UHGV virus genome: UHGV-0174779 | Reading direction: 5' to 3' (one strand) | DNA length: 64,000 bases | DNA from: a virus | In this document: positions 15,711-41,291 of the stretch, in pieces | Layout: every line of letters starts with the position of its first letter | How positions within the stretch are numbered: position 1 is the first letter of the stretch | The notes under the pieces: generated by a model | The model's input: only the letters and a program-made list of their open reading frames with translations | Told to the model about the DNA's origin: nothing | Databases searched by the model: none | Translations under genes and position numbers: made by a program

Positions 15711-15812
15711 AGAGCTCTTAGTGAGGGTGTATCTTCCCCGCCTTCTAAGCGGTCGTTAAAGAAGTAAATGGAGTATGCAGGTTCGAGTCCTGTCACCCTC
15801 GCTAAGAGCTCT
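15711..15812 (+). other. long hairpin (about 18-bp stem) enclosing a tRNA-like T-arm (GGTTCGAGTCC); possible RNase III site or degenerate tRNA-like element
   Basis: AGAGCTCTTAGTGAGGGTG pairs with CACCCTCGCTAAGAGCTCT; internal GCAGG-TTCGAGT-CCTGT resembles a T stem-loop; a UCU anticodon-like loop (CCGC-CTTCTAA-GCGG) is present but I could not fit a canonical cloverleaf. Confidence 0.3.
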
Positions 15813-20347: not shown

Positions 20348-20357
20348 AAGGTTAGTT

Positions 20358-21329
20358 ATGTCAATCTCCACAACGATCGTACCTCTGAATCTTCAACAAG
20401 ATTTAGGGGAACAGAAGTTCTTAGGTCGTGGGTGCTTCGGTATTCACAACTACATGCAAGGCCAAGTCATAAATGACATTAATGGCGACTCTGTAATGGA
20501 AGAAGGGATTCATAAACGCTTCAACCGTGATATCAACTTGCAATTGGAGATGTTGAATTACTGGACTCACTCTTTTCATGGTCTCGCTGCATCTGACATT
20601 GAAAAGAACTTGGTTGAAACAGCAGACATTATGAACTCTATGTCTTGCTATCGTGATGTATTTACGATCACTTCAGCGAATAGTGTTGCTGTCAACCTCC
20701 GTGAGCATCCAGCAGATCAAATCTTCACAGGACTTATGCTCTTCCGTAGTATTCTGGAAGGGCAGTATCGTGGAATGGATTTCCTATCAGAAGGAATTGA
20801 AGACAGGGAAGAGTGGCTGAAGCGTAAACGCATCGGAATTGCTCTAGTGTTAGCTGGGTTAGGTCGAGACTTCTTCGGTGGATGGTCTCAACGAGGAACC
20901 TCCAATGGGAGTGGAGAGAACACATCCATTGTTATTAACAACAATATGTCAGCAGCAGCATTCCTTCCTTTGGTTGTAGACTCTGATGAATACACGAAAC
21001 AAGTGTGGGTTCAAAACCCCTTCGGTGTTGGTGACAACAAGGACGGTTATGTTCGCAACCATAACCAAGATGCCTTACGAAGATTTGCTCGTGCTAAAGA
21101 TCAAGACCCGGACGAGTATGAAACAATGTCAGAGTGGTTAAGACTCTGGTCCAGCTGTCATGGTCACAAACGTGAAACAATAGACAATAAGTTGGAAAAC
21201 ATTACAGTACAAAACTTTACAGCCCGATTGATTCAGCGTACTGGTCCAACTTCTGGCCTTACGACTGAAGAAGTTGGTAACACAATCTCATCTCTCTTTT
21301 CTGAACTAGTGGAGTATTACAATGACTAA
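20358..21329 (+). CDS. protein of unknown function (323 aa), amidoligase cluster
   Basis: RBS AAAGG; overlaps next gene. Confidence 0.65.
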   Translation: MSISTTIVPLNLQQDLGEQKFLGRGCFGIHNYMQGQVINDINGDSVMEEGIHKRFNRDINLQLEMLNYWTHSFHGLAASDIEKNLVETADIMNSMSCYRDVFTITSANSVAVNLREHPADQIFTGLMLFRSILEGQYRGMDFLSEGIEDREEWLKRKRIGIALVLAGLGRDFFGGWSQRGTSNGSGENTSIVINNNMSAAAFLPLVVDSDEYTKQVWVQNPFGVGDNKDGYVRNHNQDALRRFARAKDQDPDEYETMSEWLRLWSSCHGHKRETIDNKLENITVQNFTARLIQRTGPTSGLTTEEVGNTISSLFSELVEYYND

Positions 21330-22128
21330 GCGCAAATTCTTAATAGGCAGCGACCCTGAGCTCTTCGTTCGTACTAGCAACGGAATCATCACCTCTGTAG
21401 CCGGTCTTCTAGGCTGCTCTAAGGACGATAAGATCGCTCTGGCTAAGGATGTTCGTCTTCAAGAGGACAACGTATTGGCTGAGTTTGATATTGACCCACA
21501 GAGCGGTTTTGAAGCGTTTAATGATAACATGCAACGTGGTATTGATCTCACCAATAGAGTCCTGAACAAACTGGACATGGAAACAGCTCCGGGTGTTAGC
21601 TCTCACATCTTCACTGAAGAGGAGATGAAGACTTTCAATGAATCAGCGTTCATCTTCGGATGTACTCCTGATTTCAACGCTTTCACTGGTCAGAAGAATC
21701 CATCCCCGACTTCTCAGAACAAGGGGCTTCGTACTGCCGGTGGTCACGTACATCTTGGCGTAGTTGGTTCTTTGGATATCACTCTGCAAACTCAGATGAT
21801 GCTGGGTGTGCTGTGTGACTACTTCCTATCACTCCCAGCAGTTATCATGGATAAAGATACTCGCCGTAAAGAACTTTATGGCAAAGCATCTGCAATCCGT
21901 TATAAGGACTACGGTATTGAATACCGTTCACTGTCCAACTTCTGGATTAACGATCGTGAAAATCGTAAGTTTGTTTACGATCAGGTTGACAAGGTTGTTC
22001 AGCAGTGTGATATGTCCACTCTGATGGCATTGCACTCTCGTCTTCCGATTGAGAAGCTTCACGAAATTATTAACGGTAATAACGTTAAAGAAGCGGACCA
22101 GCAGATCAAACTCCTTCAGGTAGCATAA
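21322..22128 (+). CDS. COOH-NH2 ligase (glutamine-synthetase/GCS2-like fold), putative
   Basis: N-terminal IGSDPELFV and GGHVHLG motifs resembling carboxylate-amine ligases. Confidence 0.5.
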   Translation: MTKRKFLIGSDPELFVRTSNGIITSVAGLLGCSKDDKIALAKDVRLQEDNVLAEFDIDPQSGFEAFNDNMQRGIDLTNRVLNKLDMETAPGVSSHIFTEEEMKTFNESAFIFGCTPDFNAFTGQKNPSPTSQNKGLRTAGGHVHLGVVGSLDITLQTQMMLGVLCDYFLSLPAVIMDKDTRRKELYGKASAIRYKDYGIEYRSLSNFWINDRENRKFVYDQVDKVVQQCDMSTLMALHSRLPIEKLHEIINGNNVKEADQQIKLLQVA

Positions 22129-22137
22129 GAGGTTATC

Positions 22138-22755
22138 GTGAGCTTAGTAGCTGATTTTTCTCATTACTATAGTGGCACATGGATTGCTAAACGAGCAGGC
22201 AACATCAACCTTCCCTGTTTTGTGATTGGTGTTGAGCAGAGAGGTAACTTCCGCAGCGACGACTTCTCACATGAAGCAGAACAAGCTCTGTACTTTGTTG
22301 TAGAGCAATGGTACAAGAATGAGAACGGGATTCTCCGAAACACTACGATGAATATTCCAGTGTTTGACCCAACCTTGATTCTTGAATCACCTGATGTTGG
22401 CTATCTGTTCCATAATGGTAACACTGTAAGCTGGACTCATATCAACCCTGTTCGTCAGAGAGCGAAGGGTTTGGTGGGTAACAAGATTCGAAATGCTCCG
22501 GGGGTTGGTCGTTCTATCTCTGGGGAAATGGTTTACAGTCTATTCAATCCTGAATTTGATGGATTGGTTACTCGTTACATTTACATCAACCCTACAGATG
22601 GTAAAGTGCATTATAAAGGTGCACGGGTAGGTCAGGTAGATCTGGAAGCACCTCGTGACTCTTACGGTCAGCAACCGATGCGACTTCTGGAACATTTTCA
22701 TCACATCTCTGAAAACCTTAGCAATTATAATATTACGTTGGTGGATTCGTTATGA
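22138..22755 (+). CDS. protein of unknown function (205 aa, GTG start), amidoligase cluster
   Basis: RBS AAGAGG. Confidence 0.5.
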   Translation: MSLVADFSHYYSGTWIAKRAGNINLPCFVIGVEQRGNFRSDDFSHEAEQALYFVVEQWYKNENGILRNTTMNIPVFDPTLILESPDVGYLFHNGNTVSWTHINPVRQRAKGLVGNKIRNAPGVGRSISGEMVYSLFNPEFDGLVTRYIYINPTDGKVHYKGARVGQVDLEAPRDSYGQQPMRLLEHFHHISENLSNYNITLVDSL

Positions 22756-23855
22756 CAACTGTAGCGCAAACTTTTGGATATCGAGAAGGTCGTTTAACTG
22801 AGGCGCATAGTTCAATTGCACTTCAGTGCGGTGTCGGTATTGAACTTGAACTCGAAGGTTCTGAACATATCGAAGCAGATATGTGGGATTGCACAGAGGA
22901 TGGTTCCCTGCGTAACGGTTGTGAAATGGTATGTTCACGACCTTACAACGGACAGGAGTTGTTAGACGCTATCAACAACCTGAGTGAAGCAGTAGCTGAA
23001 TCGCACGCCGAGGGGACTTGGCGTTGCTCTACTCACGTTCATATGGATATGAGGGATGCTGATAGTAATATCCTCAAGAAGACCATTCTAGCTTGGACCT
23101 TCTATGAAAAGATGTTGTTCAAGTGTTCAGGCTACCATCGTTACCGTAGCAACTTCTGCCCTGCTTTCGCAGTGGTACAAGCACAGGTAATGAATGCCTC
23201 TGACGCATTTAACTACGACGATGAAGAGTTCTTCAACCGTCTGGTTCGTTCATGGGATAAATATACATCTCTGAACCTTCTGCCACTTGCCCAATATGGT
23301 TCGATCGAGTTCCGTATCAGTGAGCCTAAGTGGAAACGTGGTCAACTTCTCAATCTGGTTAACCGCTTCTTAATGTTGAAGAAGCTGGCTTTAGATAACG
23401 CAGAGATGAGCAATGATCAGTTTATCGAGCATTTAAATACTGTACGATTTGCCCCAATGCTTCCTTATCTTCCACTAGATTACAGTCTGGATGAATTGGA
23501 TTTGCATTCAGGGTATTGTATGGCCCGTGATGTTTTGTACTGCCGTTCTCATGAAGTAGAGCAGTCTGGTCGTATTCGTTTACGTCGAACCAACCCAAGT
23601 GGAGAAGTTCTTGTTGACTTACGTCTTATCTCAGACTTCTATGGATACCTTGGATATGTCCGAGGGAATGCTAACAACTTGTACCAAGAGATTTTGGTCA
23701 TGCTTAATACAACAGATCTATCTACTGTACGATCTGCACCAGAGCAATGTATCCGTGAGATCTTTGACTTACTTCGTGAGTCAGGCCATATTGATAATAA
23801 TATCACAGGGTACATTCCAGATCATCTGGAGTATCAGTTAGAGCAAGCGCTGTAA
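22752..23855 (+). CDS. amidoligase (glutamine-synthetase-like fold), putative
   Basis: GVGIELELEG...EDGSL...CSTHVHMD motifs typical of predicted amidoligases. Confidence 0.6.
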   Translation: MTTVAQTFGYREGRLTEAHSSIALQCGVGIELELEGSEHIEADMWDCTEDGSLRNGCEMVCSRPYNGQELLDAINNLSEAVAESHAEGTWRCSTHVHMDMRDADSNILKKTILAWTFYEKMLFKCSGYHRYRSNFCPAFAVVQAQVMNASDAFNYDDEEFFNRLVRSWDKYTSLNLLPLAQYGSIEFRISEPKWKRGQLLNLVNRFLMLKKLALDNAEMSNDQFIEHLNTVRFAPMLPYLPLDYSLDELDLHSGYCMARDVLYCRSHEVEQSGRIRLRRTNPSGEVLVDLRLISDFYGYLGYVRGNANNLYQEILVMLNTTDLSTVRSAPEQCIREIFDLLRESGHIDNNITGYIPDHLEYQLEQAL

Positions 23856-23934
23856 TCAATGGGTGCCTCTGATAAAGGGGCACAATTTAAAGGTTAATTA
23901 GATGAAAGGGTTTACCCTTCAGGTGGATTAGAAA

Positions 23935-25965
23935 ATTTGCGGCATCGTATTAGCTGGCGGTAATCTGTCAAGCACCGATTTAGACGTATTCAACCAACTC
24001 TTTTATGCTGGGGTATTCCGAGGACAACATTCCTCTGGTATCTTTGGTCAGCGTAAAAGTACTAAGGAAGTCTTCACTTATAAGGAAGCTCTTCCCTCTT
24101 TCGCATTCATCCTACAAGATGAGTATAAGAAGCACACCACTGGTGAAACATCTTATACTGTAGCACCTTCATGGATTGTTGGTCACAGTCGTCATGCAAC
24201 GAAAGGTGCAGTTAACGCCAAGAACGCCCATCCTTTCCAACACGGTAACATCACTCTGGTTCATAACGGAACCTTGATGGACCAAGATCTGTTACCTGAC
24301 AGTAAAAACTTCGAGGTAGACAGTGAGAACATCTGCTACTCTATTAACACTATTGGTGCAGCAGAGACTATTCAAAAGCTGGATGGTGCTTTCACCTTAA
24401 TCTGGCATGATGCTTCTGATAACCGTCTTCATATTATTCGTAACGAAGAGCGTCCTTTCCATCTCGCACGTTGTAATAGAGATTGGTTTGGTGCTTCTGA
24501 AGAAGATATGCTGATGTGGATTCTGAAGCGTTCTAAGTCTCACAAAAACCGAATTGATGAGCACTTTGAATGTAAAGTTGGTACAGAATATATCTTTGAT
24601 ATGTCAAACAACAGCATGACTCTGGTTGAAGAGGTCGCCCATGAGCTTCCGGTTTTTACGGTAGTCAATCGTTGGGCCAGTTACTACTCGAACAACTACA
24701 GCCAAAGCAATTATCAAAGCTCCTCAAAAAGCAGTACAAGCAATCCTTACGACACGAAGCCGGGAGTGACAGCGGCAGACGTTCGTCGAAGAAACGCAGT
24801 GGTAAGTCAAAACAAAATCGCAAGCGATCGAAACATTGATATTCGCCGCGACATGACTGTGGAAATCACACCACATGAATTTGTTCCCTATGCAACTGCT
24901 GGTGCTGTTCCTTCTCGTGGTAAGATGATTGGTTATATCTACGATGAGAAATCTCAAGAGTACATTGAAGGTGATGTTCATAACGTAGACATTAAGGCTT
25001 ATCAGGATGCCCTGAAAGACCCTAAAATTGTTTACCGTGGGACAGTATCCTGCATCTCCGAAGTCGATGCTATGGTTCGTTTAGTAATCACAGCAGGTCG
25101 TTTTGTTGACCCATCTCTGGAGAAAAAGGAGCCTGAGTCAACTACTGCTGACTTCGATGATGATATCCCTTTTGACATGAATGATAGTTTCGTCAACAAG
25201 AATGGCGTTACTATCACTCGTAAATTCTGGGAAGCACACTCTCATGGTGATTGTGGTGGTTGTGACAAGCACATTGATTGGAAGGATGCACCTAAAGCAG
25301 TCTTCGCATATCAGTGCTACTGGCATCCCGAGTGTCTGGAAAGGTTGACTAAACCTAAAGAGGAAGAAGAGGAGGAGACTCCTATCGGTGTTTGTGAAAT
25401 CTGTGGTGAGGTTAAAACAGAGAATGAGTTCGATGAAGAACTTAGCCGCCTCCGTGGTGAAGATATCTGTAAAGACTGTGCTGTAGAAGTAAAGAAGAAA
25501 GTGTCTAATGCTACGATCAAAGATGGTTATGTCTGGATTAAAGCAACAGATACAACAAACACCCGTCGTCCTGAAATTGCTGTACGTGTAACTGAGGAAA
25601 TGATTGGTCGTATGACCGTATTACCCTCCTCAGCGAAACAAACAGGTATCACTCTGGAAGATGTTGTTGATGCTTATGTTGAGAAACGTGGCAACAGTAT
25701 TTTTGCAATCTCGACTAAGCCAAAAAAGGAGGAACCTGCTGAGAAAGCAGGTGTGTTTCCTGAATCACGAACAGCTCTCCGCAAAACTGTTGTCAGCTTC
25801 GACGGAAATCGAAGCACTGACTTCACCAAAGCCATGTGGTCAACCCTCGGATACTGCTCAGAGTGTTTTAAGCAGATTCCGTGGCGCGATGCTGAAAGTT
25901 GTACGCTTGGTTCTATGAATCAAGTTTATTGTAATTCTCCTAAATGTTCATTGAATAGAGGTTAA
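23935..25965 (+). CDS. class-II (Ntn) glutamine amidotransferase domain fused to Cys-rich zinc-ribbon repeats; predicted AUU start
   Basis: Frame is open from stop at 23929; translation CGIVLAGG...RGQHSSGIFG...HSRHATKGAVNAKNAHPFQHGNITLVHNG matches the GATase-II N-terminus (MCGIVG). The only codon that puts Cys at position 2 is ATT 23935, 8 nt after AGGTGG. The track ORF 24274-25965 (TTG) would remove the catalytic domain. Confidence 0.65.
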   Translation: MCGIVLAGGNLSSTDLDVFNQLFYAGVFRGQHSSGIFGQRKSTKEVFTYKEALPSFAFILQDEYKKHTTGETSYTVAPSWIVGHSRHATKGAVNAKNAHPFQHGNITLVHNGTLMDQDLLPDSKNFEVDSENICYSINTIGAAETIQKLDGAFTLIWHDASDNRLHIIRNEERPFHLARCNRDWFGASEEDMLMWILKRSKSHKNRIDEHFECKVGTEYIFDMSNNSMTLVEEVAHELPVFTVVNRWASYYSNNYSQSNYQSSSKSSTSNPYDTKPGVTAADVRRRNAVVSQNKIASDRNIDIRRDMTVEITPHEFVPYATAGAVPSRGKMIGYIYDEKSQEYIEGDVHNVDIKAYQDALKDPKIVYRGTVSCISEVDAMVRLVITAGRFVDPSLEKKEPESTTADFDDDIPFDMNDSFVNKNGVTITRKFWEAHSHGDCGGCDKHIDWKDAPKAVFAYQCYWHPECLERLTKPKEEEEEETPIGVCEICGEVKTENEFDEELSRLRGEDICKDCAVEVKKKVSNATIKDGYVWIKATDTTNTRRPEIAVRVTEEMIGRMTVLPSSAKQTGITLEDVVDAYVEKRGNSIFAISTKPKKEEPAEKAGVFPESRTALRKTVVSFDGNRSTDFTKAMWSTLGYCSECFKQIPWRDAESCTLGSMNQVYCNSPKCSLNRG

Positions 25966-25970
25966 ATCAG

Positions 25971-26204
25971 ATGGAAATTCGTAAGATGATGTTGGATAAT
26001 GTTGTAACTACTCGACGTATCCCGATGACGAGCACAGGATGTGACAACCTTCGTGCAATCCAGAAGTGGATGCAAGCTGGTATTGGTCAAGTACTTGAGA
26101 CACAGGTTGAGGTTCCGTTCCCAACGGTGATCAATAACGTACTTGCTGATTATGTAAAAATCAAAGGCATTAAGGTAGAACCTCATGTCAAATCTGGTTC
26201 CTAA
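25971..26204 (+). CDS. hypothetical protein (77 aa)
   Basis: ORF only. Confidence 0.4.
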   Translation: MEIRKMMLDNVVTTRRIPMTSTGCDNLRAIQKWMQAGIGQVLETQVEVPFPTVINNVLADYVKIKGIKVEPHVKSGS

Positions 26205-26409
26205 GAAACCGAAGATTACTCTCCTACAGTATTACATAGGAGTTCATATCGAATTAGTAACGGAGCAGCGAAAGCTGTATCCGTTCGCTTTCGGTCTGAT
26301 TGATGCACCATCCGATGAAGTAGAGAACGATGCGTTCAATGACTACTTCGAAATTGAAGCTCAGATTCAAAAAACTCGTAACGAAATTCTTAAACTTAAA
26401 GGTATCTAA
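26185..26409 (+). CDS. hypothetical protein (74 aa)
   Basis: ORF only. Confidence 0.4.
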   Translation: MSNLVPKKPKITLLQYYIGVHIELVTEQRKLYPFAFGLIDAPSDEVENDAFNDYFEIEAQIQKTRNEILKLKGI

Positions 26410-26411
26410 CA

Positions 26412-27608
26412 ATGACTACTCGTATCCGTGTTCTCCCTTATGGCCCTTCTGATTCAGTTCGTGAACTTACTTCTGCTATTAATGCTAAGATTCAGGAACT
26501 TCGACTGAATGCTAACGTAATGTCTCTGGTATCAGAAAACTCTCGTTATCGTTCTCGAGCCGGTGATATTGTTGTAAACTATGGCAACCGTCGTTATGAT
26601 GCTTCTTTCTTTGGTGGTGCAACCGTACTGAACCCTGTTGAAGCCCTGAACCGAGCAGCTAATAAAGTTGCAGCATTTAACGCATTACGGTTGGCTGGAG
26701 TTAAGACTGTTGAATATACCGTTGATCGTGAAGTAGCTCAGAGCTGGAACCAAAACGAAATCGTTTATGAGCGTGCAACCTTAACTGGACATTCTGGTGA
26801 AGGCATCACCGTACGTCTTCCGGGAGAAGGTACTGCAAGTGCTCCTCTGTATACGAAAGGTATTCAAGGTCCGCGTCGTGAATGGCGTGTTCATGTGTTC
26901 GAAGGTGTTATCACTTACGTTCAGAAGAAGATTCGTCGTAATGGATATCGTGAACTGGAAAGCTATCGTGAAAATATTCGCAACCATCACACTGGCTGGG
27001 TTTACTCTAACTCTTTCACTGAAGCTCCTCCTGATCAAGTTCTGATTCAAGCCCACAAAGCTGTGTCTGCTCTGGGTTTAAACTTCGGCGCTGTTGACCT
27101 GATTAGTAAAGGCTCTAACGCTTGGGTTCTGGAAGTAAACACTGCTCCGGGTCTGACTGGTACAACTCTGGAAACTTACACTCACAACATTGTTGAGTTT
27201 GTTAAGAGCTTCTCTGGTGTTGAGCCTGACTACCGCGTTGCTTACGAACTGCCTGTTGAAGAGTCGGAAGTTGAGTTTGCTGACTCAGCGGATGATGAGA
27301 ACTTTGCATTGACAGCTGAGCCAGTTGCTGAAGAGTCATCTGAACCTGTTCCTGAAACAATGCAAGTGGAAGAACAAGGGTTAGAGATCAACCCAATCAC
27401 CCGTCGTACCCTGCGTCGTGGTTATTATATCGCGAACATCAAGCATCCTGAAAACGGCTCAACTGTAGCAAGTAATGTAATTGTTTTCTTCTGCGGTCGT
27501 AACTTCTACCGCTCTGGTTGGAACGCACCAATTAGTGATCGTCAGCTTGGTCGTGTGTTGCAGATTAATAGCCTTACCCTGAATGATGGCACTGTTGTAA
27601 ACTACTAA
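26412..27608 (+). CDS. ATP-grasp ligase (RimK/GshB-like) with C-terminal extension
   Basis: ATP-grasp motifs: GHSGEGITV, REWRVHVFEG, GLNFGAVDLISKGSNAWVLEVNTAPGL. Confidence 0.8.
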   Translation: MTTRIRVLPYGPSDSVRELTSAINAKIQELRLNANVMSLVSENSRYRSRAGDIVVNYGNRRYDASFFGGATVLNPVEALNRAANKVAAFNALRLAGVKTVEYTVDREVAQSWNQNEIVYERATLTGHSGEGITVRLPGEGTASAPLYTKGIQGPRREWRVHVFEGVITYVQKKIRRNGYRELESYRENIRNHHTGWVYSNSFTEAPPDQVLIQAHKAVSALGLNFGAVDLISKGSNAWVLEVNTAPGLTGTTLETYTHNIVEFVKSFSGVEPDYRVAYELPVEESEVEFADSADDENFALTAEPVAEESSEPVPETMQVEEQGLEINPITRRTLRRGYYIANIKHPENGSTVASNVIVFFCGRNFYRSGWNAPISDRQLGRVLQINSLTLNDGTVVNY

Positions 27609-27614
27609 GGATAT

Positions 27615-27863
27615 ATGGATATGTTTTCATTGGAAGATCTAGTACAAAATGGAATGATGGAACAAAAAGAGCCTCTGATTGTAGGCTCTCGTAAAGAGTT
27701 GCGTAAGTTGTGTGAGGAATGGGGTATTACTAATCAGCGAATGATTGGTAATCAATTCTCTGCAATTGTAACTTTCCTGAAACGTGGTGATAAGTATTCT
27801 ATGGAATGTGTAGAACGTATCATCGCTGAAGCACAACAAGACAAAGGAGTGACCTATCTGTGA
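27615..27863 (+). CDS. hypothetical protein (82 aa)
   Basis: ORF only. Confidence 0.45.
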   Translation: MDMFSLEDLVQNGMMEQKEPLIVGSRKELRKLCEEWGITNQRMIGNQFSAIVTFLKRGDKYSMECVERIIAEAQQDKGVTYL

Positions 27864-28045
27864 ATAAGTATAAAGTTCTGTTTAAAGATACCAATGCCGC
27901 TGGTGAAATGCGAGCTATGGACCTAGATGCTGATATGTTTAACTTCTCTGATGGCAAAGTGACCTTCTTTCAGGGAAGTGAAGCTGTTGCAATGTTTGAG
28001 AGTGCAGCAATCTGTGGTGTAATCAAAATCTTTATTACAGAGTAA
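27860..28045 (+). CDS. small protein ending in ...ITE (61 aa)
   Basis: ORF overlapping upstream stop; C-terminal Glu. Confidence 0.4.
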   Translation: MNKYKVLFKDTNAAGEMRAMDLDADMFNFSDGKVTFFQGSEAVAMFESAAICGVIKIFITE

Positions 28046-28114
28046 TCTGCTTTAGCCTCTTCGAAAGAGGGGGCTAGTTCGGATAAACTAAACAAACCAA
28101 CAAAGGTATAGATA

Positions 28115-28534
28115 ATGTCAGAAGTAATTTACGTAGCAACTTATGGAAGTTTGAGAAGCGGTCAAGCTAACTATTTAATTAATGACCGAGCTGGTGCTAA
28201 ATCTATTGGTGAAGGTTGGACTGAAGATAACTTCGATCTGTTCCGTTACGGTGGTTCCTACTTCCCGAGCATCTCTCTCGCACACAGCAATAACAATAAG
28301 CCTGTTCGTGTAGAAGTGTTTGCTACTGACAAAGCAGGTCTGGAAGGTCCATATGACCGTCTGGAAGGCTACAACAAACATAGCCCTGAAGATAGCTTCT
28401 ATCAGCGTACCCAGATTGCTGTTAAGATGGACTCAGGTGAAACTGTTATCGCTTGGATTTATCATATCGACGAAGAACAAGATGTTCTGGTTGAGTCAGG
28501 AGACTGGTCAGAGTATCTAAAAAACGAGGGTTAA
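28115..28534 (+). CDS. gamma-glutamyl cyclotransferase (AIG2/GGCT)-like protein
   Basis: N-terminal VATYGSLRSG motif characteristic of the GGCT/AIG2 fold. Confidence 0.55.
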   Translation: MSEVIYVATYGSLRSGQANYLINDRAGAKSIGEGWTEDNFDLFRYGGSYFPSISLAHSNNNKPVRVEVFATDKAGLEGPYDRLEGYNKHSPEDSFYQRTQIAVKMDSGETVIAWIYHIDEEQDVLVESGDWSEYLKNEG

Positions 28535-29000: not shown

Positions 29001-30566
29001 ATGTCAAAGATCATTTTGGGAGACACAGGCTGTAAGGAATGTATCTCTCATGGTCGTGATAAAACCCACAACCACATGATTCTCTTCCGTAACGAAGAGA
29101 CCGGTGAGGAGTGGGGAAGTTGTAACCGTTGTGGGAATTACGAAGTGTTCGAAAAGGGCACTACACCTACTCCAAACGAGAAGAAAGAGTTATCCCCTGA
29201 AGAGTTGAGAGAAGTCTTAGATGATTGCTTAGAGCTTCCTCAGGGTGAACTTACTCGACGTTTAATCCCTAAAGCCGTATCAGAGCGTTTTGAGTGTCGC
29301 ATTGGCCTCAGCCAAACTGATGGTCAGACACCAGACAGTTACTTCTTTCCTCGTGAACGTGATGGAAACATCGTTGGTTACGAGGTTAAACTGCTAGATA
29401 GTAAGAAGTTTTATTACGTTGGCAGTGTGAAAGAAGCAGATTTATTTGGTATGGCACAGGCTCAGCGTGGTGATGTGTACAACAAGAAGCTATTCATTTT
29501 TGAAGACCCGCTATCTTGTATGTCTGGTTTCCATGTCCTTACAGCTTTTACAAATGCAACAAACATTAAGCCAGCATGTGTTTCTTTACCGTTCGGTGCA
29601 GGTTCAATCTCTTCTGTGTTGTCTCGTAATCGAGACTTCGTAAATGGTTTTGAGGAGGTTGTGCTCTGCATGGACAACGATGATGCAGGTGAGATAGCTT
29701 TAACAAAAGGTCGTTCTTTATTCCCTCATGTCAAGTTTGCTCGTATTCCTAAAGGAACTTTCCCATACAACGGTGTGGAGAAAGAGATTAAGGATGCGAA
29801 TGACATGCTTCTGTCTGGTCGTGGTCAAGAGTTATTCAACATTCTCAAGTATTCAGCAAAGCGGGAATCTCCTGCTGGTGCTGTAACAATCTTTGATTGT
29901 CTTGATGATGCTCTGAAGAAAGCAGAATGGGGTATCCCCTATCCGTGGAAGACTCTGAATGAAATGACCTTCGGTATTCGATGGGGAGAGGTGGTAGCAA
30001 TTGGTGGTGGAGTAGGGAGTGGTAAAACACTCATTGCTCACGAGCTGGTTGCTCATCTGTGCTTAGAGCATGGTTTTAATGGAGGTGGCTTCTTCTTGGA
30101 AGAGAAGGTAGGCATGTCTGTTAAGAACATTGCTGGTAAGTCAGCATCTATTCCTTTCCACCGACCAGATGTTGAATATGATGAGGAGGATTTGCGTAAT
30201 GAAGCACTTCGTTATGCAGACAAATTCTTCTTGTATGACAACTTCGGACAGAACGAATGGGAAGACATTAAACAGTGTATCCGTTTCTGGGTAGTTGAAA
30301 ACCAGTGTAAGTTTATCATCCTTGATAACATTACCGCTCTGGTATCTCATTTAACACCTTCAGAGATTAACACTGAAATCAGTAAGATTGCTTCCGAGCT
30401 TGCTGGTATGTGTAAAGAATTAGACTTTACCGCTTTCGTTCTATCTCACCTCAATGCTCCGGCAGGTGGTGCTCCTCACGAAGAAGGTGGACAGGTACGT
30501 GAAGTGCAGTTCACTGGTTCTCGTTCCCTTATGCGTAAACAAACCTGCGCATGTAAAACCTATTGA
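29001..30566 (+). CDS. DNA primase-helicase (T7 gp4-like), 5' portion; reading frame interrupted after helicase motif
   Basis: N-terminal Cys4 zinc ribbon, TOPRIM motifs (EDPLS, MDNDDAGE), Walker A GGGVGSGKT, Walker B FIILDN; C-terminal 11 residues before the stop look non-homologous; the remaining helicase C-terminus is encoded at 31133-31411. Confidence 0.8.
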   Translation: MSKIILGDTGCKECISHGRDKTHNHMILFRNEETGEEWGSCNRCGNYEVFEKGTTPTPNEKKELSPEELREVLDDCLELPQGELTRRLIPKAVSERFECRIGLSQTDGQTPDSYFFPRERDGNIVGYEVKLLDSKKFYYVGSVKEADLFGMAQAQRGDVYNKKLFIFEDPLSCMSGFHVLTAFTNATNIKPACVSLPFGAGSISSVLSRNRDFVNGFEEVVLCMDNDDAGEIALTKGRSLFPHVKFARIPKGTFPYNGVEKEIKDANDMLLSGRGQELFNILKYSAKRESPAGAVTIFDCLDDALKKAEWGIPYPWKTLNEMTFGIRWGEVVAIGGGVGSGKTLIAHELVAHLCLEHGFNGGGFFLEEKVGMSVKNIAGKSASIPFHRPDVEYDEEDLRNEALRYADKFFLYDNFGQNEWEDIKQCIRFWVVENQCKFIILDNITALVSHLTPSEINTEISKIASELAGMCKELDFTAFVLSHLNAPAGGAPHEEGGQVREVQFTGSRSLMRKQTCACKTY

Positions 30567-31132
30567 ACTCAGGGAAAGCTAAGTCGAAAGATATGCCAAT
30601 CCTGAGCTAAGCTAGACAGTCTTCCAAGAGCAAGGAGGCTTTATGGAAGAGAAACAAATAGAAGGTGCATCTAATTATTGGGTGCGGCCTGATGGTACGA
30701 TTTATAATAGTAAAACAGGCAATGTTATCTTAGGGGCCAGACATGGCAACGGATATTTAACTGTTTACTTAAGAATGGATACGGGACAAAGAAAGAAATT
30801 CTACATGCACCGACTAGTAGCTATTGCCTTTGTTCCTAACCCTCACAATTATCCATTTATTGATCACTTGGACCATACAAGAGATAATAACGTGGCAACT
30901 AATTTGGAGTGGGTAACCAACGCTGAGAATGTTCAGAGAGGTTACAATTTCTTTAATTATAAACGGAAGACTGTTTAGAAAGTGCAGAGACTAGGGTGGT
31001 CATAAGACCGAAGTACAGCCAAGTGGTGTCATTAACATTGACTTAAATGGAAGCAGTAGGCACACTTTTGTGTGGTGAGATAGTCCGATCTTGCAGGAAA
31101 CTGTAAGCAGCATGTAGTGGTGCGGGGTATGA
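30531..31132 (+). mobile_element. putative self-splicing (group I-like) intron carrying an HNH homing-endonuclease ORF, inserted in the primase-helicase gene (boundaries approximate)
   Basis: Helicase homology stops near 30530 and resumes near 31133 in an open frame without a start codon or RBS; intervening 0.6 kb contains HNH ORF 30643-30978. Confidence 0.45.
30643..30978 (+). CDS. HNH homing endonuclease (HNH_3 type)
   Basis: HRLVAIAFVPNPHNYPFIDHLDHTRDNNVATNLEWVTNAEN signature; RBS AAGGAGG. Confidence 0.8.
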   Translation: MEEKQIEGASNYWVRPDGTIYNSKTGNVILGARHGNGYLTVYLRMDTGQRKKFYMHRLVAIAFVPNPHNYPFIDHLDHTRDNNVATNLEWVTNAENVQRGYNFFNYKRKTV

Positions 31133-31411
31133 GTAGCGATCATATCTGAACTTTTGTGGTGTCAGTGTATCATTGGCTTTGAGCGTGACAAGCAAGCTGA
31201 TGGCTTAGCTAAGAACCTCTCAGTCATTCGATTACTGAAAGAACGTAACTACGGTCAGACAGGTGTCTGTTATACTAAGTATATCAGTGAGACCGGCAGA
31301 CTTGTAGAAAGGGAAGACTTTGAAGTTGACGAAGATAATCCATTCGTTTTAACTAACGGAGAGGATGCAGCTTCTCTCGTCAGTCAAGCAGATGGAGCTT
31401 CACCGTGGTAA
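31133..31411 (+). CDS. primase-helicase C-terminal segment (exon 2 or split C-terminal fragment)
   Basis: [47 protein letters not shown] aligns to the T7 gp4 C-terminal region ([46 protein letters not shown]); no ATG or RBS. Confidence 0.6.
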
Positions 31412-31962
31412 AGAAAAAGAAGAAAGTGTTTGCATTCGATATCGAGAGTAATGCACTATACGATGATATAACCAAAGTGTGGTGTATTTATATTTTCGAT
31501 GTTGAAACTGATGAAAGGTGGGGCTATCGGCCTCACCAAATTGAAGATGGGATTCGTAAGCTTACAGAAGCTGATGTGATCTTAGGTCATAACATTATTG
31601 ACTTCGACCTTTGTGCTCTGAAGAAAATGTATCCCAATCTGATCGACTATCGTTTTAACGTCTTCGACACTTTATGTCTTAGTCGATATCTTAAACCTGA
31701 CCGTATTGGTGACAGTCCTGAGTATCCGAAAGGCGACCCTAGACATGGCCCAAGAGGTCATGGCTTGAAGCAATGGGGTGAGTTCTTAGGGGAACTTAAA
31801 GGTGATTACGGTGAGCAAGAGGAAGCATGGGATGCTTTCACTGAGGATATGTTTACTTATTGTGAACAGGACGTTAACTTAACTGTTAAGGTTTATAAAT
31901 ACTTGTGTGAACTCACAGGATTTGACCCTTACGACCCACCTTCATTATATTGGAAAATGTAA
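31405..31962 (+). CDS. DNA polymerase A 3'-5' exonuclease domain, encoded as a separate ORF
   Basis: Exo I FDIES, Exo II HNIIDFD, Exo III YCEQD motifs. Confidence 0.8.
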
Positions 31963-31963
31963 A

Positions 31964-33250
31964 ATGATTGTTATCCCGATTAACCGAATTGCAGATAAGG
32001 TTGCTCAACAACCTGATATCACTGTTGGTCGTCACTTCATTGAACAGTTGATTAACAACAACTTGATTCCAGACTGTATTTGTCCCATCATCACTGGTGG
32101 GGCTGTTCGTGATGCTGTTCTTAATAACAGAGCACCTCATGACATTGATATCTTTATTGTCAGAGGACAGGCCCCAAGAACTCGAAATACCTTTATCCAC
32201 CATGACCAGTGGCAAGATCTCGGACGAGAGGTTGAAAGTAATGTGAAGGAATGGCTAGAATCACAAGATATTGAATATGCATCCCTTCTTGCTGAATCTA
32301 CAGATGAGCCGTATACTGGGACTTCTCAACTAACATTCACTGATATTATTGAGTTTCAGTGGAATGGGGTTCGTATCCAATTCATGTTTAATTATCCTAC
32401 TTCTATTGAAGAGGTATTGGATAATTTTCCTATGATGTGCCGTGGTGCGATGACTCTTGACAAGCTGTTCATGACCCCCCAGGGATATTTGGCTATGACC
32501 TCTCCTTGTCCAGTGGTTGTCTCTAGTCGTGAAATCAAGTATGTTCACAAGAAGTGGCCTAATTCACAGGTATTAAGATTCTCCGATCCATCTGTTGCAT
32601 ATCAATATATGGCACAAACTCGATACCTTCCTACACCTCAACCAGTTAGTCATCTGGTCAACGAACGAGGTCAGGTTGCTCTTATTGAGGATACAACAAG
32701 TGCTCATTATTGTGTTAATCGTGACATGAGTCGATTCTTTGGGATCCCTTATGAAGAGATTCAGTTAATGTCAAGCATTCATAGCTCTAGCCAGATTCAT
32801 GCGTATTGGTCTGAAGGGTTGACAAATTTAACAACTAACACGGGTGGTGATCTGCTTGGTCGAGAAGAAGACTCTAACCGACACAATGCAATTGAAGGGG
32901 TTTTTGTATCCCCTACAATGCGTCGAGCACAAGAGTCACGAAGAGTAAGCCCTACTCGTAGAATATCTTTTGAAGATCTTGGTATTACAAGCGATTCTAT
33001 GGAGCAATGGATGGCTAGACCTTCTCGTGGTCGATCAAATGGCTTTACTGTCGGCGCACGTCAGTTCTCTGGTCAGGGTTTTGCTGTTGGTGATATCAAC
33101 GCACCTGTTAGGGCTGTGTGGACTGATGAAGATATGGTAGAGAGTCGCGCTGATCAATTTGTTTCAAATAATCCTGAAGTATTAGAACCTCAAACCCGTA
33201 CAGTTCGGTTTGCCGATGAATCGGGTCGCGGTTTCTCTTTTGAAATGTGA
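31964..33250 (+). CDS. nucleotidyltransferase (Pol-beta superfamily, CCA/poly(A)-polymerase-like head motif) with R/S-rich C-terminal region
   Basis: ITGGAVRDAVL...PHDIDIFIV matches the GGxVRD...DxD nucleotidyltransferase signature. Confidence 0.5.
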   Translation: MIVIPINRIADKVAQQPDITVGRHFIEQLINNNLIPDCICPIITGGAVRDAVLNNRAPHDIDIFIVRGQAPRTRNTFIHHDQWQDLGREVESNVKEWLESQDIEYASLLAESTDEPYTGTSQLTFTDIIEFQWNGVRIQFMFNYPTSIEEVLDNFPMMCRGAMTLDKLFMTPQGYLAMTSPCPVVVSSREIKYVHKKWPNSQVLRFSDPSVAYQYMAQTRYLPTPQPVSHLVNERGQVALIEDTTSAHYCVNRDMSRFFGIPYEEIQLMSSIHSSSQIHAYWSEGLTNLTTNTGGDLLGREEDSNRHNAIEGVFVSPTMRRAQESRRVSPTRRISFEDLGITSDSMEQWMARPSRGRSNGFTVGARQFSGQGFAVGDINAPVRAVWTDEDMVESRADQFVSNNPEVLEPQTRTVRFADESGRGFSFEM

Positions 33251-33271: not shown

Positions 33272-33826
33272 ATGAGTTTACTAGGAAGCCCAGAGTTACA
33301 TAAATTAATTGACGATGGTGTTATTGATGCACCACACTCAGCTGTTAATTCCTCCAGCATTGATGTTCGTATTGGAGATCGCGTTCTGATGGAAGGTGCA
33401 GCTAATGGGGTTGTTGATATCTCTGCTAAAGAGTCCCCTAACTTCAATGAGGTTATGATTCCAGAGGAGGGGTTGGTGATCAAACCGGGTGAGTGTTTCT
33501 TAGCTCATACAGTGGAGACATTCAACCTTCCAGACAACATTAGCTGTGACTTCATGCTACGGTCTACTGTCGGTCGTTGCTTCTTAGAGCACATGCACGC
33601 TGGTCATGCTGATGGCGGTTGGCATGGCAGTCAGTTAACTATGGAATTCAAGAATGTCCTACAGCACCACTCTTTGCTAATTAAACCGGGGATGCGTATA
33701 GGTCAAATGGAGTTCTTTAAACATTCCTCCTCGGAAGAGGATAGCTACGCAACGAAAGGTTCCTATAATAATCAACAAGGGCCAACAAAAGCTTTTGGTG
33801 GAACAAATCATGCTGATATGGTATGA
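33272..33826 (+). CDS. dcd: dCTP deaminase / dUTPase-family protein
   Basis: IDVRIGD, IKPGECFLAHTVE, RSTVGR, GWHGSQLTMEFKN, IKPGMRIGQMEFF motifs typical of dCTP deaminase. Confidence 0.65.
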   Translation: MSLLGSPELHKLIDDGVIDAPHSAVNSSSIDVRIGDRVLMEGAANGVVDISAKESPNFNEVMIPEEGLVIKPGECFLAHTVETFNLPDNISCDFMLRSTVGRCFLEHMHAGHADGGWHGSQLTMEFKNVLQHHSLLIKPGMRIGQMEFFKHSSSEEDSYATKGSYNNQQGPTKAFGGTNHADMV

Positions 33827-35269: not shown

Positions 35270-35548
35270 ATGTCTAAAGTAATTAAGTTTTATAGTGATC
35301 AGTGTGCTCCATGTAAAGCAATGGCTCCTACCTTTGAGAAGGTTGTTAAGGAGTTTGATGTAGAAGTGGAAGAGATTAACATCCTTGAAGGTGATGGTCG
35401 TGAACAAGCTGTTAAGTATGGTGTACGAAGTATCCCTGCTTTCGTTGTGCCTGACCGTAACAGTGGTGCACACTACAGCCTCTCTGGTATGCAGACTGAA
35501 GCAAACCTGAAAGCATTTTTGGATACAGCTCTGAATGGTAATCGATGA
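35270..35548 (+). CDS. thioredoxin/glutaredoxin-like protein (CAPC active site)
   Basis: FYSDQCAPCKAMAP CxxC motif in thioredoxin-fold context. Confidence 0.65.
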   Translation: MSKVIKFYSDQCAPCKAMAPTFEKVVKEFDVEVEEINILEGDGREQAVKYGVRSIPAFVVPDRNSGAHYSLSGMQTEANLKAFLDTALNGNR

Positions 35549-36005
35549 TTTAGAGTATATCCCTGAAACTGGAGAGTTCTTTCGAAAAGGTAAGAAATTA
35601 GGAGGAACTCGAAGTAAGTACATAACCCTGCGGTTTAAAGGGAAAGTACACAAAGCTCATAAAGTGGCATGGTTCTTTTACTATGGAGAATGGCCTTCTT
35701 CTCAGATAGACCATATCGATAGAAATAAGAAGAACAACTCAATACAGAACTTGAGGTTGGTGGACACCTCGACAAACTGCCACAACCAGTTCGGGGCTAG
35801 AGTATCAAACAAGGAAACAGGGCTTCAAGGTGTTAAGGTTGTCAAATACAGATCAGGCACTATCAGATATAGGGCTGTTATTTGTATTGATAAAGTAGAT
35901 ATACATCTAGGTATGTATGGAACTGCCGAAGAAGCTCATCAAGTTTACATGAATCGAAAAAAGGAACTTTTAATTGAACGAACAACTACAAGCAACACTG
36001 ATTGA
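35535..36005 (+). CDS. HNH homing endonuclease (HNH_3 plus AP2-like domain)
   Basis: KAHKVAWFFYYGEWPSSQIDHIDRNKKNNSIQNLRLVDTSTNCHNQ plus RYRAVICIDKVDIHLGMYGTAEEAHQVY. Confidence 0.7.
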   Translation: MVIDDLEYIPETGEFFRKGKKLGGTRSKYITLRFKGKVHKAHKVAWFFYYGEWPSSQIDHIDRNKKNNSIQNLRLVDTSTNCHNQFGARVSNKETGLQGVKVVKYRSGTIRYRAVICIDKVDIHLGMYGTAEEAHQVYMNRKKELLIERTTTSNTD

Positions 36006-36630
36006 AGCAATGGGAAGTGACAAATCTGTAGTCAATGCAGCTAGAGTATCTTTCGGTGTTGTTCGAGAAGGTGACTTAAATGAGAGAGACACAAAACTTA
36101 TCAACTTCCTTGCACGGGAAAAACACTGTACTCCATTCCGACACCCGCAAGTCAGTTTCCGATGCAAAGCACCTATCGCAATTGCGAGACAGTTGGGCAA
36201 GCATCAGGTTGGATTCTCGTGGAACGAAATGTCCCGGCGGTATAAAGATGGAGCAGTTGAAGTCTTCATCCCTAAAGAGATTTTTGCGAGACCTTCGGAC
36301 CTCCATGCAGGTTCAGGGATTCAACTCCTCAACGGAGAACGAGCTGAAGCATTAATGCTGATTAACGATGCATATGAAGCTTCTCTAGCAGCATATGACA
36401 AGTTGATTGAATTCGTTGCACCAGAGCAAGCCCGATTTGTTCTTCCTCAGGGGATGATCACTGAGTGGGTGTGGACTGGTTCTTTATATGGCTGGTTTGA
36501 GTTGTGTCGTCAGCGACTCTCCTCTCATGCTCAGTATGAAGTTCGAGTGTTTGCCCAATCTCTAGATGAAGAAATGGCTAAGCTCTACCCAGTCTCATGG
36601 GCAGCTTTGAAGAAAACTTTGGAGAATTAA
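35974..36630 (+). CDS. thyX: flavin-dependent thymidylate synthase (ThyX)-like
   Basis: AARVSFG near N-terminus and ARQLGKHQVGFSWNEMSRRY resembling the ThyX RHR..S...SxRY signature (with K/Q substitutions). Confidence 0.55.
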   Translation: MNEQLQATLIEAMGSDKSVVNAARVSFGVVREGDLNERDTKLINFLAREKHCTPFRHPQVSFRCKAPIAIARQLGKHQVGFSWNEMSRRYKDGAVEVFIPKEIFARPSDLHAGSGIQLLNGERAEALMLINDAYEASLAAYDKLIEFVAPEQARFVLPQGMITEWVWTGSLYGWFELCRQRLSSHAQYEVRVFAQSLDEEMAKLYPVSWAALKKTLEN

Positions 36631-39446: not shown

Positions 39447-41291
39447 GTGAGCAACCCGGACGCTCTTCCATTTTTGACAGAGATGACTGTCGCTGATATA
39501 ATCTCTAAGCAAGCAAAGCACGGAGTGAGTTTCAACCGAAGAAATGCTCGGTGGTATGTTCACCTCCTTAAAGAGATTATTGTTAATATTGATAAAGAAC
39601 TAATTCCTCTCTTACCTAAGATGAGATTAGACGGCTCTACTTATATGAAGCCGTTTAAGAAGTCTGGAGCTTTGCAGAAGTGGCCTCAAGCCTATTGTGA
39701 TAGGGTTGGGCTGAAGAGGGAGGACATTGGTGGAGCTTTCACCTGTGTCGAATACGTAGACTTTGACCCATCGAAGGATGCACGAGTTAAAGAAGCTCTT
39801 ATGGATGAGGGCTTTCTTCCTCCAGAGTTTAACGTATCTAAAAAGCCTTGGAATACTTTCGAAATTAAGAAAGATATGAGAAAGTATGGAACATACCAAG
39901 CATGGTATACTGCTTGGATGCGAGGCAATGCTAAGCAAAAGCAGACAGCCGAGATGGTTGACGCTGATATAAAGAAATTCTTAGAAAAGCATTTTAGATT
40001 TAAGACTAAGAATTACATGAAGGCTTACGTATTTGGTTTGGGATTAAACCCGAATCGCCGTAATCCTGTAACGTTTGATGAGATTAAGAAAGCACTAGCC
40101 ACATCAAACAAGTGGCCTACAGCTCCTACAAACCTCGAGGAGACTCTTGAAGAAGGGCTAGGGGGTGAGCTAGGGAGTGTTGGGAGTTTGCTTAAGAGAC
40201 GCGTTGTAGCGGCTCACAGGCTAGGTCTTATCAGTGGACTTATAGCAAAGGAACGCGAAGATGGTAAACTTTCAGCAGAAGCTAACAGCTGCGCTACGCC
40301 GACTTTTCGATTCAAACATCGTATCGTGGTTAATATTCCCTCCCGTGGTCTGTTTGGTCACGAGTGTCGCAGTTTGTTTGAGTCTGACTATAACTCAGAC
40401 AGTGATCACTCTCGTCCTTTCGTTATTACTAACGTTGTTCCTGATGGTTGTTATATACGAAAAGGTACTAACGTAATTTACGAGAAAGGTAAGCCGGGGA
40501 AGAAAGACAAACCTGTAGGTGCTTACAAATATTACATACCCGCTGGTAAAGAAGTATTCTTAGGGTATGATGGTTCTGGGTTAGAGTTGCGTATGTTAGT
40601 GCACTATCTTGTGAAAGAGTGCCTTGACATGATGGAAGAAGCCAAAGCAGAGAACGATAAAATTAAGTATCTTAGGGCTGAGAAAGGCTTAGAGGCTGCT
40701 TATACTTATCGAGAGGTTCTTCTCTCAGGTGATATCCATTCCCACAATCAGAAACTAGCTGGCCTACCAACTAGAGATAATGCAAAAACTTTTATCTATG
40801 GATTTCTATATGGGGCAGGCGCAGCTAAGATTGGAGAGATTGTTGGAGGAGGTGCTCAAGAGGGTGAAATTCTCAGAGAACGTTTCTTAGCAGAATGCCC
40901 TTGTATCCCAATTGTCTTGGAGAGAGTACAAGCTCGTGCAGAAACAGGTACTCTTGAAGGTGTGGATGGTCGTAAGTTGACCATGAGACGGGATGCTACT
41001 GGTAAGGTTATGGTGCATAAAGCCCTGAATACCCTACTCCAGAGTGCAGGTGCCATTGTCATGAAATACTCCATTTTGTTCACAAATAAATGGGTAGAGC
41101 AGCAGGGTATTAGAGGAAATAAGGTGATTGACTATCATGATGAAGCACAGTGGTCTGTCAACCGTAACGACATTGATAAAATGAAAGAGATAGCTGAGAC
41201 TTGTGTTAAAAAAGCAGGAGAATATCTAAACATGCACTGTGAATTAGCATCTGATTGTCAGATTGGATTAAATTGGATGCACACCCATTGA
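39447..41291 (+). CDS. DNA polymerase A (T7 gp5-like) polymerase domain, separate ORF (GTG start)
   Basis: Motif B RDNAKTFIYGFLYGAG and motif C YHDEAQW; lacks exonuclease domain, which is at 31405-31962. Confidence 0.85.
   Translation: MSNPDALPFLTEMTVADIISKQAKHGVSFNRRNARWYVHLLKEIIVNIDKELIPLLPKMRLDGSTYMKPFKKSGALQKWPQAYCDRVGLKREDIGGAFTCVEYVDFDPSKDARVKEALMDEGFLPPEFNVSKKPWNTFEIKKDMRKYGTYQAWYTAWMRGNAKQKQTAEMVDADIKKFLEKHFRFKTKNYMKAYVFGLGLNPNRRNPVTFDEIKKALATSNKWPTAPTNLEETLEEGLGGELGSVGSLLKRRVVAAHRLGLISGLIAKEREDGKLSAEANSCATPTFRFKHRIVVNIPSRGLFGHECRSLFESDYNSDSDHSRPFVITNVVPDGCYIRKGTNVIYEKGKPGKKDKPVGAYKYYIPAGKEVFLGYDGSGLELRMLVHYLVKECLDMMEEAKAENDKIKYLRAEKGLEAAYTYREVLLSGDIHSHNQKLAGLPTRDNAKTFIYGFLYGAGAAKIGEIVGGGAQEGEILRERFLAECPCIPIVLERVQARAETGTLEGVDGRKLTMRRDATGKVMVHKALNTLLQSAGAIVMKYSILFTNKWVEQQGIRGNKVIDYHDEAQWSVNRNDIDKMKEIAETCVKKAGEYLNMHCELASDCQIGLNWMHTH

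Follow-up and report, generated by a model that had tools for sequence, protein, structure and literature searches.

The 64,000-nucleotide stretch of viral DNA analysed here (UHGV virus genome UHGV-0174779, hereafter the window) carries, at 31964-33250 on the plus strand, a gene for a nucleotidyltransferase (NTase). The predicted fold of its product and an invariant catalytic motif indicate a head-only, active-site-intact enzyme that would share its ancestry with the class II CCA-adding enzymes and poly(A) polymerase I (PAP I), and we tentatively propose that it adds nucleotides to an RNA 3' end. The window was assigned by megablast and tblastn to Kuravirus (Gordonclarkvirinae), the phiEco32-like prolate podophages of E. 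coli. The phage gene is genuine and conserved. It corresponds to phiEco32 gp73 (phi32_73, YP_001671818), and the two products are 85% identical over the full length. Other Kuravirus orthologs are 76-89% identical, and the PHROG 12715 profile matches residues 1-428 (E=7e-230). Neither the gene nor its annotation is new, both being public already: phiEco32 gp73 is annotated as 'nucleotidyltransferase' in RefSeq, and nr contains an identical protein named 'classII CCA-adding enzyme-like protein'. One peptide of the SU10 ortholog has been detected by mass spectrometry (PMC4281155), and no biochemical characterisation of any family member was found in the searchable literature. The protein had no match in NCBIfam. 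A Pfam entry, PF26128, is precomputed on homologs in the database; it did not turn up in our own Pfam scans and is mentioned in no paper.

Predicted fold and catalytic motif

The coding sequence and the parts of the protein discussed below are located as follows.

31964..33250, plus strand: complete NTase coding sequence, 428 amino acids (aa) and stop, ATG to TGA; ortholog of phiEco32 gp73 (phi32_73)
31964..32578, plus strand: conserved NTase core, residues 1-205; the class II-type head domain, preceded by one strand and two helices at the N-terminus
32090..32155, plus strand: motif A, I-T-G-G-A-V-R-D ... D-I-D-I-F, residues 43-64; catalytic motif binding nucleoside triphosphate (NTP) and metal
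32426..32443, plus strand: F-P-M-M-C-R, residues 155-160; P156 invariant, F155 invariant in the closer subgroup
32528..32560, plus strand: helix R-E-I-K-Y-V-H-K-K-W-P, residues 189-199; family consensus RDxxYxxKKxP, Y193 and K197 invariant
32579..32830, plus strand: family-specific extension, residues 206-289, mostly helical; predicted local distance difference test (pLDDT) score 74-96
32801-32821, plus strand: short aromatic motif A-Y-W-S-E-G-L, residues 280-286, at the end of the extension
32831..33247, plus strand: predicted disordered tail, residues 290-428, rich in S, R and G; pLDDT below 50

A first-pass annotation made from the sequence had taken ITGGAVRD (residues 43-50 of the open reading frame, ORF) and DIDIF (residues 60-64) as the catalytic motif of the DNA polymerase beta (Pol-beta) superfamily of nucleotidyltransferases. 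Profile searches, an AlphaFold model, Foldseek and the invariance of the motif within the family all confirmed this assignment. That the motif might be incidental and the fold unrelated was addressed by profile search and structure prediction, and did not hold. The AlphaFold model, built from the family alignment, was confident from residue 1 to about residue 285, with 211 residues at a pLDDT of at least 90, and showed the alpha/beta NTase core fold of the DNA polymerase beta-like superfamily. The top 42 Foldseek matches in the PDB consisted entirely of class II CCA/CC/A-adding enzymes and PAP I, and profile matches in the PDB and Pfam went exclusively to CCA-adding enzymes and the PolyA_pol head. 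About 155-166 residues of the NTase superposed on class II enzymes, the extension at residues 206-289 lying outside the matched region. Identity to the class II tRNA nucleotidyltransferases (1MIV, 3H37, 1OU5, 4WBY) and to E. coli PAP I (3AQL) was 13-18%. A bacterial protein of 191 aa described as a 'CCA-adding enzyme head domain' protein (S. pneumoniae NP_344798.1, PDB 2LA3) matched far less well than the full-length class II enzymes did.

At the level of sequence the likeness is confined to motif A. The NTase reads GGAVRD-x9-DID, which fits the class II motif A, GGxVRD-x(8-10)-DxD, and was aligned to CCA-adding enzymes by both HMMER and hhalign; it was the sole stretch that aligned with class II enzymes in these profile searches. 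The Pfam model of the PolyA_pol head, PF01743, scored 21.9 bits with the full protein and 22.8 bits with residues 1-285, the gathering threshold being 23 bits. Weak matches to PF01743 were obtained for 18 of 26 family members (best E=2.3e-4), and two further members that were scanned separately gave no Pfam match even at E up to 10.

Conservation and selection

The family is tiny. Among 1.84 billion representative proteins, the family profile recovered 31 relatives, 26 of which, at 21-35% identity to the query, were used for the family alignment. In this alignment, G45, G46, R49, D50, D60, D62 and F64 of motif A are invariant, as are Y117, I128, Q139, P156, Y193 and K197 outside it. The Pol-beta-superfamily signature hG[GS] ... 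[DE]x[DE] is thus present as G45-G46 ... D60-x-D62 and is unchanged across 26 divergent homologs. The invariance of motif A at such low identities supports an intact active site. The ratio of nonsynonymous to synonymous substitution (dN/dS) of the core was 0.10-0.16, indicating purifying selection. All loci examined lie on phage contigs, and the family has been seen on phage contigs only. A scan of 185,579 bacterial and archaeal genomes with one peptide pattern, a search of limited sensitivity, revealed no relative.

The same data bear on whether the protein could be a catalytically dead scaffold that keeps the fold alone. Motifs B to E of the class II enzymes are not recognisable in it, and after D62 the family alignment has no invariant acidic residue. 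The invariant Gln139 would lie next to the DxD strand, on the strand formed by residues 136-146, where a third carboxylate might be expected. All NTP- and metal-binding residues of motif A are nevertheless invariant over deep divergence and the core evolves at a dN/dS of about 0.1, which is the typical pattern of an active site. We therefore regard a dead scaffold as highly improbable.

Extension and disordered tail

The first-pass annotation had described what follows the motif as a long R/S-rich tail without recognisable domains. This description holds for residues 290-428, which are predicted to be disordered and have no Pfam match, but not for the region before them, since the folded part reaches about residue 285. 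The extension formed by residues 206-289 is family-specific and absent from the matches to solved structures. Near its end, W282 is invariant in the closer subgroup, and most members have an aromatic residue at this position.

The tail contains two RRxS repeats (RRVSP and RRISF) and a conserved C-terminal block (NNPEVLEPQTRTVRFADE.GRG.SF). Within Kuravirus its identity is 71-81%, with insertions and deletions, and its dN/dS is 0.27-0.47, above the range of the core. The tail is thus constrained, but loosely. Compared with the tails of the sister genera, whose proteins have 426 and 478 aa and similarly long tails, similarity was undetectable. Distant members end 70-110 residues past the core. 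Compared with many orthologs, the NTase of the window is missing a tail segment of 9-25 residues and the C-terminal ETNN.

The C-terminal residue is F, W or Y in 9 of the 26 family members; the Kuravirus NTase tails do not terminate in an aromatic residue. The primase/helicases of the clade, namely those of the window (31154-31411, plus strand) and of three distant metagenomic phages (L009, 5627-7459; L010, 5671-7467; L031, 2641-4437), have an acidic stretch followed by a terminal aromatic residue. Their C-termini read ...DGASPW, ...DESLPF, ...NDKSPW and ...GKDSPW and are reminiscent of the C-terminal Phe by which T7 gp4 docks on the polymerase. In T7, the C-terminal aromatic tails of both gp4 and gp2.5 dock on the polymerase. 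The aromatic ends of the NTases and primase/helicases recall these docking tails, which we take as a lead, not a result.

Proposed activity on an RNA 3' end

We consider it possible, and put it forward tentatively, that the NTase takes an NTP and moves the nucleoside monophosphate (NMP) template-independently to a ribose 3'-OH at an RNA end, as its nearest structural relatives do, with a specificity conferred by the extension or by a partner bound to the tail. The protein would then be a catalytically competent stand-alone enzyme composed of a class II/PAP head core, a helical extension and a lineage-specific disordered tail. The acceptor would most probably be an RNA 3' end, which would be tailed or mended rather than furnished with a full CCA. 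As the body and tail domains that measure tRNA and the RRD and EDxxR motifs of class II enzymes are absent, the specificity for acceptor and nucleotide would have to come from the protein's own extension, with conserved Tyr117, Tyr193, Lys196/197 and the Trp282 motif as candidate determinants. A partner bound by the disordered tail may add to it.

Several observations weigh against this proposal. The choice of RNA as the acceptor has a single basis, namely that the nearest structural relatives act on RNA 3' ends. The NTase has no detectable RNA- or tRNA-binding domain, and it is acidic overall, with an isoelectric point (pI) of 5.2 and a net charge of -7 in the core. In a reference alignment of six class II enzymes (E. 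coli Cca, PcnB and four phage enzymes), R90-R91-D92 of motif B and E130-D131-R134 of motif D (EDxxR) are invariant. Motif B RRD is absent from the folded part of the NTase and from the family invariants. Motif D is not among the family invariants either, and the sole candidate helix reads R-[DE]-x-x-Y-x-x-K-K. Motifs B and D of class II enzymes read the ribose 2'-OH and the base, motif D serving as the amino-acid template for CTP and ATP. Since neither has a counterpart among the invariants, a preference for NTP over deoxynucleoside triphosphate (dNTP) and an RNA acceptor are unreadable from the sequence. In addition, the host already possesses Cca and PAP I, and the tRNA-Arg gene of phiEco32 encodes its own CCA.

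Charge was dropped as evidence against RNA binding, since E. coli Cca and the phage CCA-adding enzymes have equally acidic heads and acidity therefore does not discriminate. Counterparts of motifs B and D can be suggested by secondary-structure order in the model. F-P-M-M-C-R (155-160) would stand at about the place of motif B (RRDFTINA), a placement that is not the result of an alignment. The helix at 188-197 with R-E-I-K-Y-V-H-K-K-W-P is a candidate counterpart of the EDxxR helix, with Tyr replacing Arg, and hhalign gave no confident alignment for it. A mapping of motifs B to E with hhalign was dropped because the forced longer alignment had a confidence of at most 3 and contradicted the secondary-structure order. 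EDSNR at residues 302-306 was rejected as motif D because it falls in the disordered tail, at a position that does not correspond.

A more specific activity on RNA would be true CCA addition or CCA repair: during infection, the enzyme would restore the 3' ends of damaged tRNAs. The best structural matches include CCA-adding enzymes, and Kuraviruses possess one tRNA, tRNA-Arg(TCT) (PMC9965538). Genuine phage CCA-adding enzymes, found in 423 phage records, are nonetheless 35-56% identical to E. coli Cca, whereas the NTase aligns over motif A alone, and its PF01743 score lies under the gathering threshold. Neck, body and tail tRNA-binding domains and an HD domain were not detected by Pfam scans or in the AlphaFold model, nor does the NTase have the basic C-terminal region of PAP I; it carries the 80-aa family-specific extension and an acidic disordered tail of about 140 aa in their place. 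Together with the lack of RRD and EDxxR among the family invariants and the CCA supplied by the phiEco32 tRNA gene, these differences make CCA repair quite improbable. The first-pass description of the protein as of the CCA/poly(A)-polymerase type is accordingly kept for the head fold and motif A and given up for a bona fide CCA-adding enzyme: judged by sequence and model, the NTase shares the head domain with these enzymes but is not one of them.

A phage tRNA was also rejected as the reason for the presence of the NTase, because the phiEco32 tRNA has its CCA, the tRNA-like element of the window is degenerate, and the NTase occurs in both. This element, at 15723-15801 (plus strand), scored 30.2 bits against the Rfam tRNA model (gathering score 29) and was not called by ARAGORN. 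Its D-arm is nearly absent, its variable region has about 20 nucleotides (nt), its anticodon loop carries UCU (Arg) and its 3' end reads GCTA, not GCCA. The T-arm is like that of the canonical phiEco32 tRNA-Arg(TCT), and the element lies within a longer inverted repeat (AGAGCTCTTAG...CTAAGAGCTCT). Possibly the single Kuravirus tRNA is present here in a decayed or unusual form.

The acceptor could also be something other than a nucleic acid. The NTase might synthesise or modify a small nucleotide, such as a cyclic or linear oligonucleotide acting as a decoy, or nucleotidylate a protein, in the service of counter-defence or host takeover. A precedent exists in MNT-type phage NTases that make 3'3'-cGAMP and c-di-AMP, which jam TIR-STING (Ho et al. 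2022, bioRxiv 10.1101/2022.06.09.495361); these are likewise stand-alone Pol-beta NTases of lytic phages with no effector partner. The acidity of the NTase, its lack of a nucleic-acid-binding domain and its accessory status (see below) would suit such a target, and the tail diverges quickly between genera, as is common in proteins that touch host factors. The MNT-like enzymes, however, belong to a different clade and adjoin anti-defence genes rather than replication genes. Their signature, GS-x-AY[GAN]T-x4-SDxD and NP-x-h2[DE], is absent from the NTase, which has GGAVRD...DIDIF, and the neighbours of the two groups in structure space are different as well. A PADLOC search with the NTase protein gave no match, and the gene lies among replication genes, outside any anti-defence island. 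On balance we consider a small-molecule or protein target unlikely.

Genomic context and possible links to replication

The placement of the gene inside a replication module by the first-pass annotation was borne out: it lies downstream of the primase/helicase gene and between the following two genes.

31405..31962, plus strand: DNA polymerase 3'-5' exonuclease subunit (Pfam DNA_pol_A_exo1), directly upstream of the NTase
33272..33826, plus strand: dCTP deaminase (Pfam DCD, E=1e-31), directly downstream of the NTase

Phage phiEco32 gp73 and the other Kuravirus orthologs (PHROG 12715) are the same gene in the same slot, with no substantive difference from the NTase of the window. Farther downstream the window has genes for ThyX (35974-36630) and a polymerase subunit (39447-41291). 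The TAA of the exonuclease subunit ends 1 nt before the ATG of the NTase, and no promoter or terminator signal above chance was found in the NTase region. On this arrangement, the NTase is taken to be co-transcribed with the neighbouring replication genes and is probably translationally coupled to the exonuclease subunit. The order primase/helicase, polymerase exonuclease subunit, NTase, dCTP deaminase was fixed in every NTase locus examined, namely those of phiEco32, the BASEL isolates Bas88, Bas89 and Bas91, and the three distant metagenomic phages (L009, L010 and L031; 82-90 kb). All of these loci come from one lineage, and the synteny therefore counts as one observation.

In Cronobacter phage GAP52, the primase/helicase, the exonuclease subunit with the split polymerase, and the dCTP deaminase are kept, and a 37-aa ORF occupies the NTase slot. 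The absence of an NTase from this slot makes the NTase accessory and not a core part of the replisome. The equivalent module of GAP52 (L023; 530-1495 and 10335 onward) contains RNA ligase 2 (RnlB), an RtcB-type ligase, a phosphatase and an anaerobic ribonucleotide reductase. The accessory nucleic-acid enzymes of the module thus differ between GAP52 and the NTase-bearing lineage, and GAP52 shows RNA-end enzymes to be typical accessory cargo of such modules.

The strict gene order and the likely translational coupling with the exonuclease subunit could also be read as signs of a replisome-tethered terminal transferase, whose tail would dock on the T7-like polymerase or the helicase while nucleotides are added to primer or DNA 3' ends. 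The ends in F, W or Y of 9 of the 26 NTases, like those of the clade primase/helicases (SPW, LPF), would fit such docking. Further support comes from remote head-domain NTases, PHROG 1614, which are encoded 0-2 genes from the DNA polymerase in four Autographiviridae genomes of three lineages. The PHROG 1614 proteins (Aeromonas phage phiAS7_00003; Klebsiella, Vibrio and Pectobacterium phages) are also head-only PolyA_pol-type NTases of podophages encoded in the replication block, and their likeness to the NTase was found by profile (E=8e-8) and by Foldseek in BFVD (E 1e-6 to 4e-8). They are a separate family with about 13-19% identity to the NTase, the NTase-family profile search having given 31 proteins only; they have 180-203 aa, no tail, and a motif F/H-D-x-x-x-N resembling motif B. 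Against tethering, GAP52 has the same split polymerase and primase/helicase without an NTase, small podophage genomes place all genes of DNA metabolism side by side anyway, the NTase synteny is a single observation, and the Kuravirus tails have no aromatic end. We thus give little credence to a replisome-tethered terminal transferase.

The primase/helicase gene itself is split in the window (29001-30536 and 31157-31411) by an insertion of about 620 nt (30537-31156, plus strand) with an HNH endonuclease ORF (30643-30978). A full-length match to the Rfam group I intron model was found at 30491-31107, with 37.6 bits (gathering score 50) and E=6.5e-8 for a scan of 801 nt. The insertion is preceded by T and its last base is G, like group I introns, and the primase/helicases of phiEco32 and the metagenomic phages are uninterrupted at this site (...SLMR|WCQC...).

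The neighbourhood of the dCTP deaminase has also been linked to resistance against restriction. The Gordonclarkvirinae are reported to be strikingly resistant to restriction-modification (RM) systems, neither a modification pathway nor a restriction inhibitor being known from them, and the locus of dCTP deaminase and nucleotidyltransferase was proposed as a possible source of DNA modification (Humolli et al. 2025, PMC11990801). Under this suggestion, the NTase would help to modify phage DNA or its precursors covalently, and this would account for the resistance. The proposal points at exactly this locus, and the NTase is flanked by the exonuclease subunit and the dCTP deaminase in every member. 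Avoidance of restriction sites fails as an explanation of the resistance: the window has 28 EcoRV, 7 EcoRI, 8 EcoKI and 92 EcoP1 sites, and avoidance was rejected for EcoRV, EcoKI and EcoP1, the sites of which are abundant. On the other hand, the nearest structural relatives of the NTase target RNA 3' ends, not bases or dNTPs, the phage ThyX speaks against a replacement of dT by dU, and a hydroxymethylase or other known hypermodification enzyme was not found in the phiEco32 annotation. Native DNA of YF01 gave nanopore reads of mean Q20.3 with zero polishing corrections, and the termini of phiEco32 were mapped by restriction profiling (PMC9965538), so that a pervasive bulky modification is unlikely. 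The involvement of the NTase in DNA modification therefore appears rather improbable. A combination of the two preceding ideas, in which a tail-coupled NTase of the replisome nucleotidylates DNA, primers or a DNA precursor and thereby produces a so far undetected modification behind the RM resistance of Gordonclarkvirinae, would likewise be a long shot.

Six-base palindromes as a class are depleted in the window (688 observed, where base composition predicts 1076 and a Markov model 806), and ten GC-containing palindromes, including the PstI, SphI and SmaI sites, are absent. Over the whole window there are 8 Dcm sites (CCWGG), about 73 being expected, and 129 GATC sites, about 238 being expected. 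Sites of HindIII (39), like those of EcoRV, EcoKI and EcoP1, are not avoided, which bears on the reported RM resistance.

Other features of the window

A second HNH homing-endonuclease ORF (35535-36005, plus strand; Pfam HNH_3, E=1.6e-13) lies between a thioredoxin gene and the gene for ThyX. At that position phiEco32 lacks it; in the window it overlaps the beginning of the listed ThyX ORF. The GlmS-like glutamine amidotransferase, a protein of 676 aa in phiEco32 (gp83), is represented by an ORF of 563 aa (24274-25965, plus strand; start ...MMDQDLLPDSK). About 110 N-terminal residues including the catalytic Cys are out of frame (about 23935-24273, plus strand), and the truncation may point to a frameshift, a pseudogene or an assembly error. 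An early cluster at 19148-28534 (plus strand) has homologs of an amidoligase / COOH-NH2 ligase, a GATase, an ATP-grasp 'S6 glutaminyl transferase' and a gamma-glutamyl cyclotransferase, the names being taken via the phiEco32 annotation. This cluster, which is common to the clade, looks like a peptide- or metabolite-modifying system.

Implications for the family

The gene is ordinary and already catalogued, and its value is that of a lead. The NTase family defines a very small group, on phage contigs, of what appear to be head-only class II-type nucleotidyltransferases. It would have lost every element of RNA or tRNA specificity of its relatives, and yet strong selection maintains an apparently intact active site. 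In many T7-like phages, a remote sister family holds a similar spot beside the DNA polymerase. Kuraviruses are candidates for phage therapy and are unusually resistant to restriction (PMC11990801). As the BASEL isolates grow on E. coli K-12, the family is experimentally tractable.

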